This document shows positions 3,161-23,494 of a stretch of 32,000 bases of DNA, in pieces (position 1 is the first letter of the stretch; each line of letters opens with the position of its first letter). This stretch comes from Candidatus Saccharimonadota bacterium (lineage in GTDB: Bacteria; Pseudomonadota; Gammaproteobacteria; Enterobacterales; Enterobacteriaceae). Location of the stretch: the NCBI GenBank assembly GCA_036689225.1, contig CP144768.1, positions 236,408 through 268,407 on the forward strand. Reading direction: 5' to 3'. The notes under the pieces were generated by a model, which had not been told where the DNA came from, did not search any database, and worked only from the letters and a program-made list of their open reading frames with translations. A program made the position numbers and the translations under genes.

Positions 3161-3883
3161 TTATAAAAAAATTTTTCCAAATTTTCTATTTCTTAAAAAG
3201 AAACTATTAATTATATTTTTAAAATCAATACATTTAAAATCAGGTCATAAAGTATTTACAAAAAAAATTTCAGAATATGCAATTTGTCATAATAAAAAAT
3301 TACTTATTCTTTTTTCTCCACCTGTACGTATTAGTAAATCTACTGAAGGTAAATTACCTAAACATAAATTTTTATTTACAAAATTTTCATTTATATCTTT
3401 TATATTAATAATACTTTTATTATTTTTTTTTAATATTTTTTTTATACAATTTATAATATCTCATTTACCACTATAATTTATAGCAATATTTAATTTTAAA
3501 CCAGTATTATTTTTAGTTAAATATTTTATATCTTTTATATTTTTATTTAAATTATAATAAAATTTATTTTTATTTCCTATAATATTTACACAAATATTTT
3601 TATTATGTAAAATATACATTTGATTTTTTATAGTTAAAGAAAATAATCTCATTAATTCAGATACTTCTAAAGAAGGTCTATATCAATTTTCAGTACTAAA
3701 AGCATATAAAGTTAATATTTTTAAATTAATATTAACTGAAAAATTAATAATATCATTTAAAGATTTTAAACCTTTCTTATGTCCTAAAATACGAGATAAT
3801 CCTCTTTTAGTAGCTCATCTACCATTACCATCCATAATAATAGCAATATGATTTATTTTATTTAAATTATTTTTATTTAACAT
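3161..3883 (-). CDS. uppS: Undecaprenyl diphosphate synthase
   Basis: From ATG 3881-3883 I read [42 protein letters not shown]...LTLYAFSTENWYRPSLEVSELMRLF..., then NYSGKWDI...[35 protein letters not shown]. These are canonical UppS motifs. Five in-frame TGA codons fall at conserved Trp positions, for example GNGRW at 3815-3817. The stop is TAA at 3161-3163, giving 240 aa. Track ORF 3461..3652 is an internal fragment. Confidence 0.93.
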
Positions 3884-9220: not shown

Positions 9221-10420
9221 TTAAAATAATTTATTTATAAAAATATTTTTTAAAAAAAAATATATTTTTTTATATCTTAAAATTTTAATTTTTTTACTTA
9301 TAAAAATACCAATATATCCTAATTTAATTAAATATTTATTTTTTATATTTTTACATATAATATATATATCTAAAATATATTTTTCTAAAAAAAATAATAA
9401 TTTATTTTTTAAAGGCAATAATTTTATAAAATTTATAAATTTACGTAAAAAAAATAAATTATTAACATTTCTTCAAACATTAATAATATTTAATAAATTT
9501 AAAATCATTATAGATAATATTTCATTTTTATAAAAAAAAACTTTATATAAAAAATTATATATATTCTTAAATAAAATAAAAAATTTTTTTGGTAATTTTA
9601 ATCTTTTGCAAAAAATAAAAACTTTATTTAAAGTATAATATTTTTTATAAAAATATTTTTTTGAAATTATAGAATATCCAAAAAAAGAAAATAAACATAA
9701 TAAAATAATTTCTAATCCTAATTTATAATTACTATTATTATTAAATAATAATTTAAAATAATATTTTTTTTTTTTATTATTAAAAATAGAAAATATTTCA
9801 GGATAAATTATATTATTTATATTATAAATATTTAATAAATTAAAATATATAAATAAATTTCCTTTTAAAAAAACTTTTTTAGTTTCCAATCAAATTCTTT
9901 CAGGTTTTAAATATAAAAGTTCACCAGATTTAACAATTTTTTCAATCAAATTTAAAGTTTTTTTATGAATTATAAAACCAAATTTATAATAAAAAGAATA
10001 AATTTTAAATAATCTTAAAACTCTTAAAGGATCTTCAGAAAAATGAAAAGAAACATGTTTAATAATACGATTATTTATATCATTAATACCTCCAAAAAAA
10101 TCATAATATATACCTTTTTTATAGGCTATAGCATTAATAGTTAAATCTCTTCTATATAAATCTTCTTTTAAAGTAATTTTTTTAGAAAAATTACATAAAA
10201 AACCTTTATATCCTTTATTTATTTTAATTTCTTTACGAGCTAAAGCATATTCTTCATAAGTAATAGGATGTAAAAAAACTGGAAAACTATTACCAATAGG
10301 TATAAAACCTAAATTAATCATTTCTTTATAAGAAGATCCTATAATAACTCAATCTCTATCTCTTACATTTAATCCTAATAATTTATCACGTACAGCACCA
10401 CCAACAAGAAAAATTTTCAT
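9221..10420 (-). CDS. cca: CCA-adding tRNA nucleotidyltransferase
   Basis: From ATG 10418-10420 I read [64 protein letters not shown]...RRDLTINAIA...EDPLRVLR...LKPERIW, collinear with E. coli Cca. Track ORFs 9890..10321, 9473..9889 and 9221..9418 are one frame joined by TGA codons. Length is 399 aa and the stop is TAA at 9221-9223. Confidence 0.9.
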
Positions 10421-10677: not shown

Positions 10678-12291
10678 TTAAAATATATTTTTATTTATAT
10701 GTTTATATAATATTTTATACTTATTTATTTTATGATTTAAAATAGGAATTTTAATTTTTTTTCAATATAATTTTATATTTAAAAATTTTTCTATTTTTTT
10801 AAAAATATTTGGAATAATAGGACTTAAATAAATAGAAATAATAGCAAAAGTATTTATTATAGTAGTACAAAATTTATGTAATTCATATTTTTTTTTATTT
10901 TGTTTACATATTAATCAAGGTTTATAATCATTAATATATTTATTTATTAAATCTATTAATTTATTAACTTCTAATATAACCTTAGAATAATTAAAATTTA
11001 AAAAATAATTATTTATTAAATCATATTTACTAATAAAAAAATTATAAAAATTATAATTTAATAATTCATTAGATAAATTATTATTATAATATTTATTTAT
11101 AAAAGGATATATTCTAGAAGGAATATTTATAAAATTATTAACAAAATTACAATTAATAATTTTTATAAAATCATTTATACATAAATTTATATCATTTATA
11201 TTATAAGATAATTTACTTGCAAAATAATATCTTAAACTATCAGAATCAAAAAATTTTAATCATTTTTTTATAGAAATAAAATTATTTTTAGATTTTGACA
11301 TTTTAAATCCATTTATTTTAATATGTCCATGAACTATAATATTAGTTGGTTTTCTAAAATTTAATACATCTAATATTATTGGTAATAATAATCCATGAAA
11401 ATATAATATATCTTTACCTATAAAATGATAAATTTCATAACTACTATCAATTTTTCAAAAATTATAAAATTCATAATAATTATTTAAATAACAATATTTT
11501 TTAAAAACACTTATATATCCTAAAATTGCATCTAATCATACATAAAATCATTTATTTAAAATATATTTATCAGGTATTTTAAATCCAAAATATGGATAAT
11601 CACGAGAAATATTTCAATTAATAAAATTATTATCTAAAAAAAATAATAATTGATTTTTTATTTCATTTTGAAAATTAGAATTTAATATTCAATTAAATAA
11701 TATTTTTTTATATTTTTTTATATTAATAAATAAATGATCAGTTTTTTTTAATATAGGAATACTATTAGATAGTAAAGAAATAGGATTAATTAAATCATAA
11801 GAATTATATATTTGATTACAATACTCACATACATCACCATATTGATTAAAATTTTTACATTTAGGACATTGACCTTTTATAAATCTATCAGGTAAAAAAA
11901 TATTTTTTTTTTTATCATAAAATTGATAAATACTTTTTTTATATAGTAAATTTTTATTATTTAAATTATTTAATAATAATAAACAATAAAAATAATTAAT
12001 TTTATTATGAGTAGTATAATAAATATCATGAAATATATTAAATCTTTTAAATTGTTTTTTATGATCTATTAATATATTTTTTATCATTATTTCAGGTAAT
12101 AAATTTAATTTATTAGCTTTAATCATTATTGCTGTTCCATGAGAATCATCTGAACATATAAAATAAACATTATTACCTAATAATCTTTGATATTTTACTC
12201 ATATATCAGCTTGTATATGTTCTAAAATATGTCCTAAATGTATAGGACCATTTGCATAAGGAAAAGCACAAGTAACTAAAATATTTTTCAT
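10678..12291 (-). CDS. metG: Methionyl-tRNA synthetase (short form, no C-terminal Trbp111-like domain)
   Basis: From ATG 12289-12291 I read [56 protein letters not shown]. The zinc knuckle [17 protein letters not shown] is present, as are [16 protein letters not shown] and YVWLDAILGY. KMSKS is in frame at 11290-11304. I checked the frame by hand from 12291 to 11221 and from 10800 to the TAA at 10678-10680. Length is 537 aa. Track ORF 11689..12126 is an internal fragment. Confidence 0.92.
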
Positions 12292-12307
12292 AAATAAAAA
12301 TAAAAAA

Positions 12308-12381
12308 TCGGCGAGAGAGGATTTGAACCTCTGACCCACTAGTCCCAAACCAGTTGCGCTACCAAACTACGCCACTCACCG
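12308..12381 (-). tRNA. tRNA-Pro (anticodon UGG)
   Basis: The reverse complement is CGGTGAG-TG-GCGT-AGTTTGGTA-GCGC-A-ACTGG-TTTGGGA-CTAGT-GGGTC-AGAGG-TTCAAAT-CCTCT-CTCGCCG-A. It folds as a full cloverleaf, 74 nt, with no encoded CCA. Confidence 0.9.
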
Positions 12382-12386
12382 ATAAA

Positions 12387-12460
12387 GGTGGTTAATGGGA
12401 TTCGAACCCATGACATCTAGAACCACAATCTAGAGCTCTACCTACTGAGCTATAACCACC
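12387..12460 (-). tRNA. tRNA-His (anticodon GUG) with genomically encoded G-1
   Basis: The reverse complement is G-GTGGTTA-TA-GCTC-AGTAGGTA-GAGC-T-CTAGA-TTGTGGT-TCTAG-ATGTC-ATGGG-TTCGAAT-CCCAT-TAACCAC-C. The extra 5' G pairs with discriminator C, the bacterial tRNA-His signature. Confidence 0.9.
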
Positions 12461-15303: not shown

Positions 15304-15603
15304 ATGAAAAATATAGAATTAAAAGTAAAATACAGAAAAAAAAAAGGATCACAATATAATAAAAAAATAAGAAAAAAAAATTTAATACCAGGAATAATAT
15401 ATGGAAAAAATAAAAATAATATATTAATAAAAATTAATCATAATAATATATATAATAAAATATTTAAAAATCAAAATAAAAAAGAAATTATATTTAATAT
15501 AAAAATAAAAAAAAAAATAATAAAAACTAAAATAAAAAATATACAAAAACATCCATATAAAAATAAAATATTACATATAGATTTTATATATTATAAAATA
15601 TAA
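15304..15603 (+). CDS. rplY: 50S ribosomal protein L25
   Basis: ...RKKKGSQYNKKIRKKNLIPGIIYGKNKN...IQKHPYKNKILHIDFI matches short-form L25 (RxxGxxPAIIYG ... VQRHPYKPKLxHIDF). Length is 99 aa. Confidence 0.85.
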   Translation: MKNIELKVKYRKKKGSQYNKKIRKKNLIPGIIYGKNKNNILIKINHNNIYNKIFKNQNKKEIIFNIKIKKKIIKTKIKNIQKHPYKNKILHIDFIYYKI

Positions 15604-15675
15604 TGAGTCGTACAGGATTTGAACCTGTGACCAATTGATTAAAAGTCAACTGCTCTACCACTGAGCTAACGACCC
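15604..15675 (-). tRNA. tRNA-Lys (anticodon UUU)
   Basis: The reverse complement is GGGTCGT-TA-GCTC-AGTGGTA-GAGC-A-GTTGA-CTTTTAA-TCAAT-TGGTC-ACAGG-TTCAAAT-CCTGT-ACGACTC-A, 72 nt. Its 3' end abuts the rplY stop codon on the opposite strand. Confidence 0.9.
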
Positions 15676-15768: not shown

Positions 15769-17070
15769 ATGATTAATATAATTAATGAAAAAATAAATAA
15801 TTTATCTAAAAAATATAAAAAATTTTTAATTGCATATAGTGGAGGTATAGATTCAACAACTTTATTATATAGTTTAATAAAAAACAAAAACATAAAAAAT
15901 AAAAATATTAGAGCAATACACATAAATCATAATTTATCAAAAAAATCAAAAAAATGAGAAAATAAATGTATTTATATATGTAAAAAATGAAAAATAAAAT
16001 TAATTATAAAAAATATATTTATTAAAAAAAAAAATAATATAGAAAATAAATGTAGAAAAAAAAGATATAAAATTTTTATTAAAAAATTAATTCATTCTGA
16101 AATTTTATTAACTGCACATCATAAAAATGATCAATGTGAAACAATATTATTATCTATAAAACGTGGATGTGGATTAGATGGATTATCAGGAATAAAAAAA
16201 AAATATAAAATAAATAAAAAAACAATTTTTAGACCTTTTTTAAATATAAAAAAAAAAATAATAATAAAATATGCTAAAAATAATAATTTAAATTGAATTG
16301 AAGATAAAAGTAACAAAAATATAAAATTTGATAGAAATTTTATTAGAATAAAAATAATACCAAAAATAATTAAAAAATGACCTTATTTTATAAATTGTAT
16401 AACAAGAACAGCAAAAATATGTTTAAAACAAAAATTATTATTAGAATATTTTATTAAAAAAAAAATAAAAAAAATATTAATAAAAAACAATATAATAAAT
16501 ATAAAATATTTATATAAATGAAAAAAAGAAGAATGAATTTTAATATTAAGAAAATGAATTAAATTAAATAAAAAAAAAACATTATCTTATAAAAATATAA
16601 ATATATTATGAAATAATATATTCAAAAAAAAAAAAAAAATATATTTTCAACTAATGTTTAAAAAATTTATTATATATAAATATAAAAATTATTTATTTAT
16701 AGAAAAAAAATATAAAGAAAAAAATAATACTATAATATGAAAAAATACAAATAAAAAAATTAAATTATTTAATAATATAGGTTATTTATCAATTAATAAA
16801 AAAATAAAAAATAAAAATAACTTAGTTAGAAAACCATATAAAAATGAAATAATATATATAAAATTTAATTATAAAGGATATATAAATATATTAAATAAAA
16901 AAATAAAAATTAAAAAAATATGACAAAAATATAAAATATATCCTTGAAAAAGAAAAATAATACCAATTATTTTTTATAATAAAAAACCTATAATATGTCC
17001 TAATTTATTTAGAACAAAATATGCAAAATCAAAAAATAATAAATATTGAAATATAAATTTAATTAAATAA
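15769..17070 (+). CDS. tilS: tRNA(Ile)-lysidine synthase
   Basis: Track ORF 15769..15957 carries the PP-loop (LIAYSGGIDSTTLL). Hand translation past the TGA codons gives ...LLTAHHKNDQCETILLSIKRGCGLDGLSGIKK...FRPFLNIKKKIIIKYAKNNNLNWIEDKSN, which are TilS motifs. The frame is confirmed at the 3' end to TAA at 17068-17070, giving 433 aa. Confidence 0.88.
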
Positions 17071-19300: not shown

Positions 19301-19373
19301 AGGTCTATAGCTCAGCGGTTAGAGCACACCCCTGATAAGGGTGAGGTCAGTGGTTCAAATCCTCTTAGACCTA
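19301..19373 (+). tRNA. tRNA-Ile (anticodon GAU)
   Basis: AGGTCTA-TA-GCTC-AGCGGTTA-GAGC-A-CACCC-CTGATAA-GGGTG-AGGTC-AGTGG-TTCAAAT-CCTCT-TAGACCT-A, 73 nt, with one U-U mismatch in the T stem. Confidence 0.9.
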
Positions 19374-19375
19374 TT

Positions 19376-19448
19376 GGGGGTATAGTTTAATCTGGTAGAA
19401 CAATGGTCTCCAAAATCATAGGTTAGGGTTCAAATCCTTCTACCCCTG
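19376..19448 (+). tRNA. tRNA-Trp (anticodon CCA)
   Basis: GGGGGTA-TA-GTTT-AATCTGGTA-GAAC-A-ATGGT-CTCCAAA-ATCAT-AGGT-TAGGG-TTCAAAT-CCTTC-TACCCCT-G. The anticodon C34 C35 A36 is at 19410-19412. The anticodon loop is identical to that of E. coli tRNA-Trp. It starts 2 nt after tRNA-Ile. Confidence 0.88.
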
Positions 19449-19483
19449 TAATATTTTAAAATAATTAATTATATATAAATAAT

Positions 19484-20661: not shown

Positions 20662-23232
20662 ATGTTTAAAAAATATAATTCATTTAATAAAGAAAAGAAA
20701 ATATATAATTATTGAAAAAAAAATAATTTTTTTAATCCAAAAAATAATAATAATAATAATAAAAATAATTTTTCTATAATTATGCCACCTCCTAATATCA
20801 CAGGAAACTTACATATAGGACATGCTTTTCAACAAACTATTATGGATTTAATAGTAAGATATAATAAAATGAATAACAAAAATACACTATGATTAATGGG
20901 AACAGATCATGCAGGTATAGCAACACAAATTCTAGTAGAAAACTACTTAAAAAAAAAAAAAAAATATAAATATTTTTCAAAAAAAAATATAATAAATGAA
21001 ATTTGAAAATGAAAAAAAAAATATGAAAATAAAATAAATAAACAAACCGAATTAATAGGTAGTTCAATATATTGAAAAAAAACATGTTTTTCTTTAGATA
21101 AAAATTTTAAATATGCAGTTAAAAAAGCTTTTATTAAATTATATAATAATAATTTAATATATAAAAAAAAAAAAATAGTATATTGAGATAAAAAAATAAA
21201 AAATTCAATATCTAATTTAGAAATTAATACAAAAAAAAAACTAGTAAAAAAATATTTTATAAAATTTAAAATATTTAAAAAAAATAAATATATAACAATA
21301 TCTACAACAAAACCAGAAAAAATATTATGTATTACAGGAATAATTATAAATAAAGATATAAAAAATAATAATAAATTTATAATAAATCCATTAACTAAAA
21401 AATTAATAAAAATAATAATTAATAAAAAAAATAAAAAAAATAAAAAAAAAATAATTTCAAGTTTTAATAATAAAAATATAAAAATAATAAAAAAAAATAA
21501 ATTAAATATAATTAGTATATTTCAAAATAATGGAAATATTAAAAAAAACATAAAAATATATAATTATAAAAAAAAAAAAATAAAATATTTAAAATTTAAA
21601 AATTTAAAATGAATTAAAAATATAAATTATTTAATAGTTAGAAAAAAAATAATAAAATATTTAAAAAAAAATAATCTATTAAAAAAAATAAAATATAAAT
21701 TAAAAAAAATTAAATATAGCAATAAAACAAATTCTATTATTTTCCCTAAATTAACTAATCAATGATATATAAAAACATCTAAATTATCAAAAAAAGTAAT
21801 TAAAAATATAAAAAATAAAAATATTAAAATATTTCCTAAAAAATATAAAAAATTATTTTTTTATTGAATGAAAAATATAAAAGATTGATGTATATCTCGT
21901 CAAATATATTGAGGACACAAAATTCCAATTTGATATGATTTAAAAGGAAATAAATATATTGGTTATAATATAAAACATATAAAAAAAAAATATCCAAATA
22001 TAAATTATAAAAAATTAAAACAAGATAAAAACATTTTAGATACTTGATTTTCTTCTTCTTTATGAAGTTTTACATCATTAGGATGACCAAAAAAAAAAAA
22101 TAAATTAAATAAATTTCATCCATTAAATTTAGTAATAAGTGGTTTTGATATAATATTATTTTGAATTTGTAAAATGATAATGATGACAACATATTTAATA
22201 AAAAAAAATGGTATACCACAAATACCTTTTAAAAAAATTTTTATTACTGGATTAATAAGAGATGAAAATGGAAAAAAAATGTCAAAATCTTTAGGAAATG
22301 TAATAGAAATTTCTGATTTAATAAAAGGAATATCATTAAAAAAATTAATAAAAAAAAGAACTAAAAATTTATTTAAAAATAATGAAATTAATAAAATAAA
22401 AAAAAATACAAAAAAATTTTTTCCAAATGGAATTAAACCGAATAAAATTGATGTAATAAGATTTACTTTAATATCTATATCTACATCTACATTAAAAATT
22501 AATTTTAACAAAAATAAATTAATTTTTGGCTACAATTATTGTAATAAATTATGAAATGTATGTAAATATATTTTTAAAATAATAAAAATAAACAAAAATT
22601 ATATAAAAAAAAAAATAAAAATTAAAAAATTATTATTAATAGAAAAATGAATTTTATATAAATTTAATAAATTAATTATTAATTATCATAAAAATATAAA
22701 ATTATTTAAATTTAATATACTAATTGAAAATATTTTTAAATTTTTAAAAAATTATTTTTGTGATTGATATATAGAATCTTGCAAATTTAAAAAATTAAAT
22801 AATAATAATAAATTATTATTAATATATATAATTAATAATTTTTTAAAATTATCTCATCCAATAACACCATTTATTACAGAATATATATGAATAAATAATT
22901 ATAAAAATTCTATTTTAGAAAAAAAAATTCCAAATATAAAATATAAAATAAATAATTTTAAAAAATACAAATTAATATTTAATATATTTAAAAAAATAAT
23001 TTTTTTAATAAGAAATTTTAAAAAAAAAAATAAAATAAAAAAAATTAATATTATATATATATTAAATTTAAACTTAATATATAAAAATATTTTAATAAAA
23101 AATAAATATTTATTCAAATTAATAAATATAAAAAAAATATATTTTTTTAAAAAAAAAAATTTTTTAAAATTTTATAAAAATAAAAATATTATATTTTTAG
23201 TAAATAAATTATATATATATATAAGCGAGTAA
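20662..23232 (+). CDS. valS: Valyl-tRNA synthetase
   Basis: I translated the whole gene by hand in one frame from ATG 20662-20664: ...[53 protein letters not shown]..., [112 protein letters not shown]. There is no TAA or TAG until 23230-23232, giving 856 aa, and there are many TGA=Trp codons. Track ORF 22174..22554 is an internal fragment. Confidence 0.93.
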
Positions 23233-23307: not shown

Positions 23308-23391
23308 TGGTAGGAGAAGGATTCGAACCTTCGAAGTTATTATAACAACAGATTTACAGTCTGCCCCCTTTAACCACTCGGGAATCCCACC
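23308..23391 (-). tRNA. tRNA-Tyr (anticodon GUA), long variable arm
   Basis: The reverse complement is GGTGGGATTCCCGAGTGGTTAAAGGGGGCAGACTGTAAATCTGTTGTTATAATAACTTCGAAGGTTCGAATCCTTCTCCTACCA, 84 nt. It is nearly collinear with E. coli tRNA-Tyr as I recall it. Confidence 0.9.
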
Positions 23392-23421
23392 TAATATTAC
23401 ATTATTATATATAAATATTAA

Positions 23422-23494
<73 letters not shown>

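Follow-up and report, generated by a model that had tools for sequence, protein, structure and literature searches.

A tRNA-Trp(CCA) that probably reads UGA as tryptophan in Candidatus Stammera capleta has an A24 older than the change of code

The tRNA-Trp gene (trnW) studied here lies in a stretch of 32,000 nucleotides, hereafter the window, taken from contig CP144768.1 (assembly GCA_036689225.1, positions 236,408 to 268,407). In this window UGA encodes tryptophan, and the only tRNA-Trp gene has the unaltered anticodon CCA. The gene also has an A at position 24, paired with U11, which is the state produced in Escherichia coli by the G24A change of the Hirsh UGA suppressor, and a preliminary description of the window had pointed to this D-arm state as one that lets a CCA anticodon read UGA. 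The window belongs to Candidatus Stammera capleta, an extremely AT-rich gut symbiont of tortoise beetles (Enterobacterales, Gammaproteobacteria) that uses genetic code 4. Comparison with related Stammera loci indicates that A24 is older than the recoding and was not sufficient to cause it, since two lineages that use only UGG for tryptophan carry the same base.

The comparison covered 11 Stammera lineages, namely the window and ten related loci that share the syntenic trnI-trnW region. The anticodon CCA, A9 and the pair U11:A24 were found in 11/11. Eight of these lineages are heavy in UGA, with 48-77 TGA against 0-5 TGG codons. The two UGG-only lineages are L133 (CP144787.1, 313,940 bp), with 0 TGA and 43 TGG in 16 genes, and L134 (CP144793.1, 303,086 bp), with 0 TGA and 50 TGG in 20 genes; their code-11 status is inferred from these 36 syntenic genes together with the gTranslate preprint. 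The remaining lineage, L132 (CP144790.1, GCA_036689315.1), is intermediate, with 6 TGA and 44 TGG codons (12% UGA). The clade thus forms a series that runs from UGG-only lineages through L132 to lineages with 91-100% UGA, all with near-identical tRNAs. L132, L133 and L134 are themselves strongly AT-biased at the other A/G-ending codon pairs. The preliminary description had named in advance what would speak against its suggestion, relatives with UGA as a stop that nevertheless have U11:A24, and L133 and L134 (0 UGA / 93 UGG) answer this description. A derivation of A24 from G24 together with the gain of UGA reading, as expected of a Hirsh-type adaptation, was seen neither in this clade, given L133 and L134, nor in the wider bacterial sample described next, in which 22/36 genes have U11:A24.

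The reference state in E. coli had been given correctly: in the matches listed, which are 100% identical, the D stem of trpT is GTTC/GAGC and contains U11:G24, and the comparison sequence, annotated as tRNA-Trp, is present at ≥99% in 5,394/5,426 E. coli genomes. G24A in E. coli trpT is a proven UGA suppressor change (PMC11805395, PMC13092985), and the window tRNA shows the corresponding combination of an unaltered CCA with A24 paired to U11. Yet U11:A24 is by no means peculiar to recoded genomes. Among 36 bacterial tRNA-Trp(CCA) genes it was the commonest state (22 genes), followed by C11:G24 (11) and U11:G24 (2); these genes come from diverse bacteria, almost all presumably standard-code, and were drawn from a broad contig pattern scan (at least 120 loci, including tRNA-Cys), all with the GGTTCAAATCC T arm, so that the sample is biased; the genome of the window and its relatives were not among the loci listed. 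Bacillus, Enterococcus and Companilactobacillus have in this sample a D stem identical to that of the window, GTTT/GAAC. The distribution shows that U11:A24 is an ordinary state that coexists with UGA as a stop codon. In a published set of tRNA-Trp genes with a 4-bp anticodon stem, 2,414 of 3,438 were excluded for A9C and/or G24A (PMC13092985).

Position 24 also moved in the direction in which the rest of the gene has moved. The window tRNA differs from E. coli trpT by 16 GC-to-AT and 5 AT-to-GC changes; 10 of the 24 G positions of trpT are altered in the window, six of these ten in all eight Stammera lineages aligned. G24A is one among many changes along the mutation bias and replaces the wobble at 11:24 by Watson-Crick pairing. 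G-to-A drift that happens to coincide with the suppressor state, which the preliminary description had listed among its alternatives, fits these observations best. Its proposal that the D-arm state lets a CCA anticodon read UGA survives in part: the base state is present, but it is neither specific (22/36 bacterial genes) nor sufficient (L133 and L134).

Several features of the less recoded lineages deserve to be recorded in their own right. In L132 the AAA/AAG count is 917/13 and UGG is kept far above the level predicted from composition; opposite four of its TGA codons L133 has TGG, and its trnW (L132:5286-5357) has an unpaired U27·U43 as well as G30:U40. In L133 the tilS gene (L133:1690-2988; 432 codons, 10 TGG) is intact but for a single TGA in frame (L133:1879-1881), at a column where the TilS proteins of the window and of E. 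coli have Cys. The gene may have become a pseudogene very recently, the TGA may be an error of sequencing, or UGA readthrough may be tolerated in this lineage, for which prfB is reported as kept. In L134, ARAGORN called a tRNA-Leu(CAA) at L134:12602-12683 that overlaps the 3' end of valS and has no counterpart in the other loci; either the prediction is false, or L134 has kept a UUG-reading tRNA that the others lost.

The meaning of UGA in the window is clear from its codons. In the 27 open reading frames (ORFs) called under translation table 4 (9,357 codons) there are 77 in-frame TGA and no TGG codons, and all 27 end in TAA or TAG, none in UGA, which bears out the earlier claim that UGA is used for tryptophan wherever the window was inspected. 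UGA is tryptophan here because the UGA codons sit on conserved Trp positions. Those of uppS fall in the motifs GRWA, ENW, GKWD, LLWQ and LWPD in the alignment with E. coli UppS, and in 12 orthologous genes a window TGA stands opposite TGG at 38/47 aligned sites in L133 and at 36/47 in L134, a one-for-one replacement of UGG by UGA observed directly. The window therefore uses genetic code 4.

The absence of UGG is compatible with base composition. The other A/G-ending codon pairs of the window are 2.4% G-ending, from which 1.9 UGG codons would be expected, with P(0)=0.15; avoidance of UGG as a sign of a UGA-specialised tRNA was considered and dropped, the deficit being not significant. Zero UGG fits AT mutation pressure in a window of 13.7% G+C. 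In UGA-using relatives UGG is as common as composition predicts or commoner, with 1-5 UGG per ~55 Trp codons (5/57 in L123). Because UGG persists in them at that rate, the tRNA-Trp of UGA-using Stammera must read both UGG and UGA. The base following UGA was not enriched for A, the context that favours readthrough (54% against a background of 51%).

The tRNA-Trp gene was recovered by ARAGORN, which places it at 19375-19449 as one of nine tRNA genes in the window and the sole tRNA-Trp, and by the Rfam tRNA model RF00005, which scores 60.6 bits on 19376-19448 against a gathering score of 29. Both agree with a bacterial tRNA-Trp cloverleaf. The coordinates, base calls, anticodon CCA and U11:A24 pair (19386:19400) given in the preliminary description were confirmed by ARAGORN, Rfam and reading of the sequence. 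The single-sequence minimum free energy (MFE) fold does not form the cloverleaf (z=0.14); MFE folds that miss it are usual for AT-rich tRNAs. The D stem is composed of G10:C25, U11:A24, U12:A23 and U13:G22 and closes a loop of 9 nt; U8, A9 and A26 are present. The anticodon stem contains A27(19403):U43(19419), U28:A42, G29:C41, a G30(19406):U40(19416) wobble and U31:A39. The anticodon CCA and G73 are the major identity elements of bacterial tryptophanyl-tRNA synthetase (TrpRS), with A1:U72 and G5:C68 as minor pairs (PMC12135181). The window tRNA has C34, C35, A36 and G73, and it keeps G5:C68; its pair 1:72 is G·U, as in L124; most of the remaining Stammera lineages have A:U there. A TAA (19449-19451) follows G73 directly and no 3' CCA is encoded, so that a CCA-adding enzyme is needed, the gene for which is in the window. 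Neither a tRNA with a UCA anticodon nor any further tRNA-like element was detected in the window by ARAGORN or by a permissive Rfam scan.

Taken together, these observations lead us to an explanation that we regard as probable, with considerable reserve: the sole tRNA-Trp(CCA) reads UGA as a near-cognate codon, loss of RF2 makes this workable, A24 and the anticodon stem are permissive and not the trigger, and AT pressure converts UGG to UGA. The single tRNA would read UGG as its cognate and UGA through a C34·A pair at the third codon position. Judging from the literature, loss of RF2 competition for UGA would have made such decoding workable in this genome. The body of the tRNA may have leaned towards miscoding beforehand, through the Watson-Crick U11:A24 and an A/U-rich anticodon stem with G30:U40, A24 being either permissive for the change or simply a neutral product of AT drift. 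Once UGA could be read, AT mutation pressure would have turned essentially all UGG into UGA, site for site. A contribution of A24 to UGA reading is plausible because G24A is known to raise forward rates and to leave the tRNA pre-bent (summaries in PMC11805395 and PMC13092985); the size of any A24 or stem effect is a matter of inference. The proposed mechanism matches the distal-mutation, ambiguous-intermediate model (McCutcheon et al. 2009) and the similar route suggested for Zinderia (PMC10540940).

Five points weigh against this explanation. If ~0.8% of all codons were left to near-cognate C·A pairing and nothing else assisted, their decoding would be slow and prone to error. Some code-4 Stammera assemblies retain prfB (PMC13462651, gTranslate preprint). 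None of the 36 L133 and L134 genes ends in UGA (0/36), so that the use of UGA as a stop in these lineages rests on the preprint. Finally, C34 could be modified or edited in the mature tRNA, and the genome-wide absence of a UCA tRNA is taken from published surveys, the window being 12% of a 268-kb genome.

An extended form of the same mechanism would make Stammera a living example of the ambiguous-intermediate route, in which a Hirsh-state tRNA read UGA well enough for RF2 to degenerate, and the anticodon stem, loosened later at 27:43 and 30:40, tuned this reading. We hold this form only tentatively and think it rather unlikely as a whole. If it were true, the in-frame UGA of the L133 tilS would show readthrough being tolerated at an early stage, and the clade series would allow a direct measure of the tRNA body against RF2 loss.

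Among the other explanations, the strongest form of the Hirsh idea, in which the recoding rests on G24A as a D-arm adaptation that enables CCA to read UGA, is improbable. The contrast with U11:G24 in E. coli, the proven effect of the change and the constancy of A24 in all Stammera lineages sampled speak for it, but the constancy extends to the two lineages without UGA, and Zinderia, which also relies on CCA alone, has C11:G24. The window tRNA further has A24, A27 and A59 (19400, 19403, 19434), the bases of an in vitro-selected, UGA-reading C27A/G24A/G59A triple mutant cited in PMC13092985. A59 occurs in 5/8 Stammera lineages aligned, and the window A27 is paired again, with U43, so that the stem stays closed where that of the triple mutant is opened.

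That a weakened or opened anticodon stem (27:43, 30:40), resembling the 4-bp stems of Blastocrithidia and Zinderia, is the tRNA change that matters seems doubtful to us, if slightly less so. No part of tRNA-Trp varies more within the clade than this stem. In each of the nine UGA-using lineages it contains one or more G:U pairs or mismatches (G30:U40, G27:U43, G27·A43 or U27·U43), against five Watson-Crick pairs in the two UGG-only lineages and in E. coli (C27:G43, C28:G42, G29:C41, G30:C40, U31:A39). Pair 27:43 takes five states in the 11 lineages (U:A, U·U, G·A, G:U, A:U), the tRNA-Trp stem has six variants against at most four for other tRNAs, with the stems of tRNA-Ile and tRNA-Thr invariant, and the U27-to-G change in L127 and L129 runs counter to the AT bias. 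On the other side, about 47% of the anticodon stems of other tRNAs contain non-Watson-Crick pairs, UGG-only lineages included, the top pair of the window is a normal A:U, and we know of no effect of pair 30:40 on decoding. The lineages are moreover not independent, those with UGG only number two, and the stem is most open in L132, the UGA user with the lowest UGA count (6/50). A 4-bp anticodon stem does raise UGA readthrough in E. coli (PMC13092985).

Two further explanations concern the anticodon that reads UGA. A post-transcriptional alteration of C34, whether a modification of the cytidine or editing to U of the kind seen in kinetoplastid mitochondria, would let the anticodon pair with A; there are precedents for C34 editing and modification that alter decoding (reviewed in PMC13092985), the genome keeps the tRNA-modification genes tilS, mnmG and tsaD, and the DNA is compatible with such a change. 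We nevertheless give this explanation little credit, about as little as the Hirsh adaptation. An A-only change of the lysidine type, such as TilS acting on C34 to give a UGA-only tRNA, was judged unlikely, as UGA-using relatives still use UGG at the composition rate. The C4:G69 and C5:G68 pairs are determinants of TilS, and the acceptor stem of the window has G4:C69 and G5:C68 instead. We know of no bacterial tRNA deaminase that converts C34 to U, and a genome of 268 kb can ill afford an enzyme devoted to this task. C stands at position 34 in the Logan assembly of SRR23946949, a library of unspecified type. Constraint by TrpRS as the reason for the kept C34 was also considered and set aside, since the E. 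coli enzyme has no need to tell C34 and U34 apart (PMC12135181). A second tRNA-Trp, with anticodon UCA, outside the 32-kb window had been raised as well; most code-4 bacteria have one (PMC13462651) and the window is a small part of the genome, but three independent publications report none in Stammera (PMC13462651, with 49 genomes; PMC10540940; the gTranslate preprint), and ~250 kb of Stammera sequence, the window plus the ten related loci, contains no UCA tRNA. This explanation can hardly be credited. We accordingly keep to near-cognate reading of UGA by the single tRNA-Trp(CCA), at the strength stated above.

The assignment of the window to Stammera rests on protein matches and synteny. Its EF-P and ValRS have ~40 related proteins in Stammera-group genomes, and the best ValRS matches outside that group come from Buchnera, Westeberhardia, Tachikawaea, Pantoea and Arsenophonus symbionts. 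Among the related contigs, CP043989.1 and CP144853.1 go under the name Candidatus Stammera capleta in PMC11842425. The assumption of a betaproteobacterial source made in the preliminary description was mistaken, and an origin from Zinderia in particular is ruled out by the tRNA-Trp of Zinderia CARI (C11:G24, A27/C43), by the protein matches and by synteny. The gene order of the window (cca…tsaD-rpsU-dnaG-rpoD, trxA-rho, tilS…proS, mnmG-atp) also agrees with the E. coli map.

The main features are collected in Table 1. In all the Stammera loci compared, trnI and trnW lie together between efp/nifU and hinT-proS, and the pair is probably one transcript; promoter-like sites upstream of it (13, against 10.5±2.9 in shuffled sequences) were not above chance, and no terminator was found for it. 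Larger Stammera genomes have a response regulator and a histidine kinase between nifU/efp and trnW (L126:11045-12854, L132:5373-7369, L133:5375-7404), and the absence of this pair from the window and from smaller genomes is an example of ongoing gene loss beside the tRNA. Sub-threshold Rfam matches to plastid untranslated region (UTR) families at 19301-19374 (-), 23421-23494 (+), 12386-12459 (+), 15603-15675 (+) and 23308-23356 (+) of the window lie antisense to tRNA genes and look like artefacts of tRNA-like sequence in those models. The metG ORF (10678-12348, -) was called from a TTG inside tRNA-Pro (12307-12382, -), and its real start is probably an ATG ~19 codons downstream. No release-factor gene was recognised among the 27 window ORFs, for which translations and the Pfam labels of syntenic relatives were inspected without a systematic scan.

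Table 1. Coordinates of tRNA-Trp, its parts and related genes in the window.
Feature	Position	Strand	Basis or remark
tRNA-Trp, anticodon CCA	19376-19448	+	ARAGORN, Rfam tRNA model, sequence reading
Acceptor stem GGGGGTA / TACCCCT	19376-19382 / 19441-19447	+	Sequence reading
D arm, stem GTTT / GAAC	19385-19388 / 19398-19401 (arm 19385-19401)	+	Sequence reading
Anticodon arm, stem ATGGT / ATCAT	19403-19407 / 19415-19419	+	Sequence reading
Anticodon C34 C35 A36	19410-19412, in loop CTCCAAA 19408-19414	+	Constant in 11/11 Stammera lineages sampled
Discriminator G73	19448	+	Sequence reading
tRNA-Ile(GAU)	19301-19373	+	ARAGORN; 2 nt upstream of tRNA-Trp
uppS	3161-3883	-	5/5 in-frame UGA align with Trp in E. 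coli UppS
cca, CCA-adding enzyme	9221-10420	-	NCBIfam tRNA CCA-pyrophosphorylase, E=3.9e-90
tilS, tRNA lysidine(34) synthetase	15769-17070	+	12 UGA codons; NCBIfam TilS N- and C-domain models above cut-offs
valS	20662-23232	+	20 in-frame UGA, 0 UGG; L133 and L134 orthologues without UGA

That UGA=Trp Stammera genomes have only a CCA tRNA-Trp is already known. Manzano-Marin et al. 2023 (PMC10540940, Table 2) list Stammera as prfB-minus with an unchanged CCA in trnW, and Parks et al. 2026 (PMC13462651, Table 2) report, for 49 Stammera genomes of 0.22-0.34 Mb and 13.9-20.4% G+C, tRNA-Trp(CCA) as present, tRNA-Trp(UCA) as absent and prfB in 15/49. The gTranslate preprint states that Stammera is 'always' without tRNA-Trp(UCA) and describes a basal Stammera clade of five genomes with code 11 and prfB kept, and PMC13092985 lists Stammera in passing as having a 5-bp anticodon stem. 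In the literature searched we found neither a link between Stammera and the Hirsh position nor a mechanism by which CCA reads UGA in Stammera. Our observations agree with these accounts of the same group of organisms in UGA=Trp, the CCA-only tRNA-Trp and the absence of a UCA tRNA, to which the accounts add the loss of prfB in most genomes; our observations differ in giving the 11:24 state, the variation of the anticodon stem and the comparison of tRNAs from UGG-only and UGA-using lineages, which we did not find in the literature searched. What is new is the greater age of the Hirsh-state base relative to recoding, and a gradation within one clade from UGG-only through intermediate to UGA-using lineages.

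How a codon can pass from stop to sense when no tRNA matches it has long been asked of the evolution of the genetic code, and the Hirsh A24, as the switch, was one attractive answer. The present comparison removes that answer, because A24 predates the recoding. Stammera tRNA-Trp resembles the Hirsh suppressor (E. coli trpT G24A, su+9) in its unchanged CCA, U11:A24 and kept A9, and in reading both UGG and UGA, as predicted for Stammera. It differs in that its A24 is fixed, ancestral and common to UGG-only lineages, with ~20 other positions different from trpT, and in its task: the Hirsh suppressor is leaky and competes with RF2, whereas a fully reassigned codon is left in Stammera to this tRNA-Trp alone.

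In the code-4 genomes of Mycoplasmatales, Hodgkinia and Nasuia, and in mitochondria, UGA=Trp and the reading of both Trp codons likewise fall to tRNA-Trp, but there C34 has become U and decoding is by normal wobble; the window tRNA keeps C34, and the cognate tRNA-Trp(UCA) usual for code 4 was found neither in the window nor in the ten related loci. The closest parallel is Zinderia, another extremely AT-rich insect symbiont with UGA=Trp, a CCA-only tRNA-Trp and no UCA tRNA, for which C·A decoding has also been invoked. The Zinderia case has been explained by a 4-bp anticodon stem (PMC13092985). The tRNA-Trp of Candidatus Zinderia insecticola CARI has C11:G24 and an unpaired A27/C43 (NAR 2026 Suppl. 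Table 5), as against U11:A24 and a paired A27:U43 in the window, and the two tRNAs differ along their whole length. The window tRNA, with a 7-nt loop, has a stem of 5 bp, which places it outside the 4-bp class (27:43 unpaired, 7-nt loop); a second point sets it apart as well, since that class lacks A9C and G24A and the window tRNA keeps A9 but has A at position 24. In L129 (G27·A43) and L132 (U27·U43), unlike the window, the top pair is opened. The UGG-only, 12% UGA and >90% UGA members of the series make tRNA variants, prfB status and codon usage comparable within Stammera, which suggests, like Zinderia, that a CCA anticodon can serve a proteome's worth of UGA codons.

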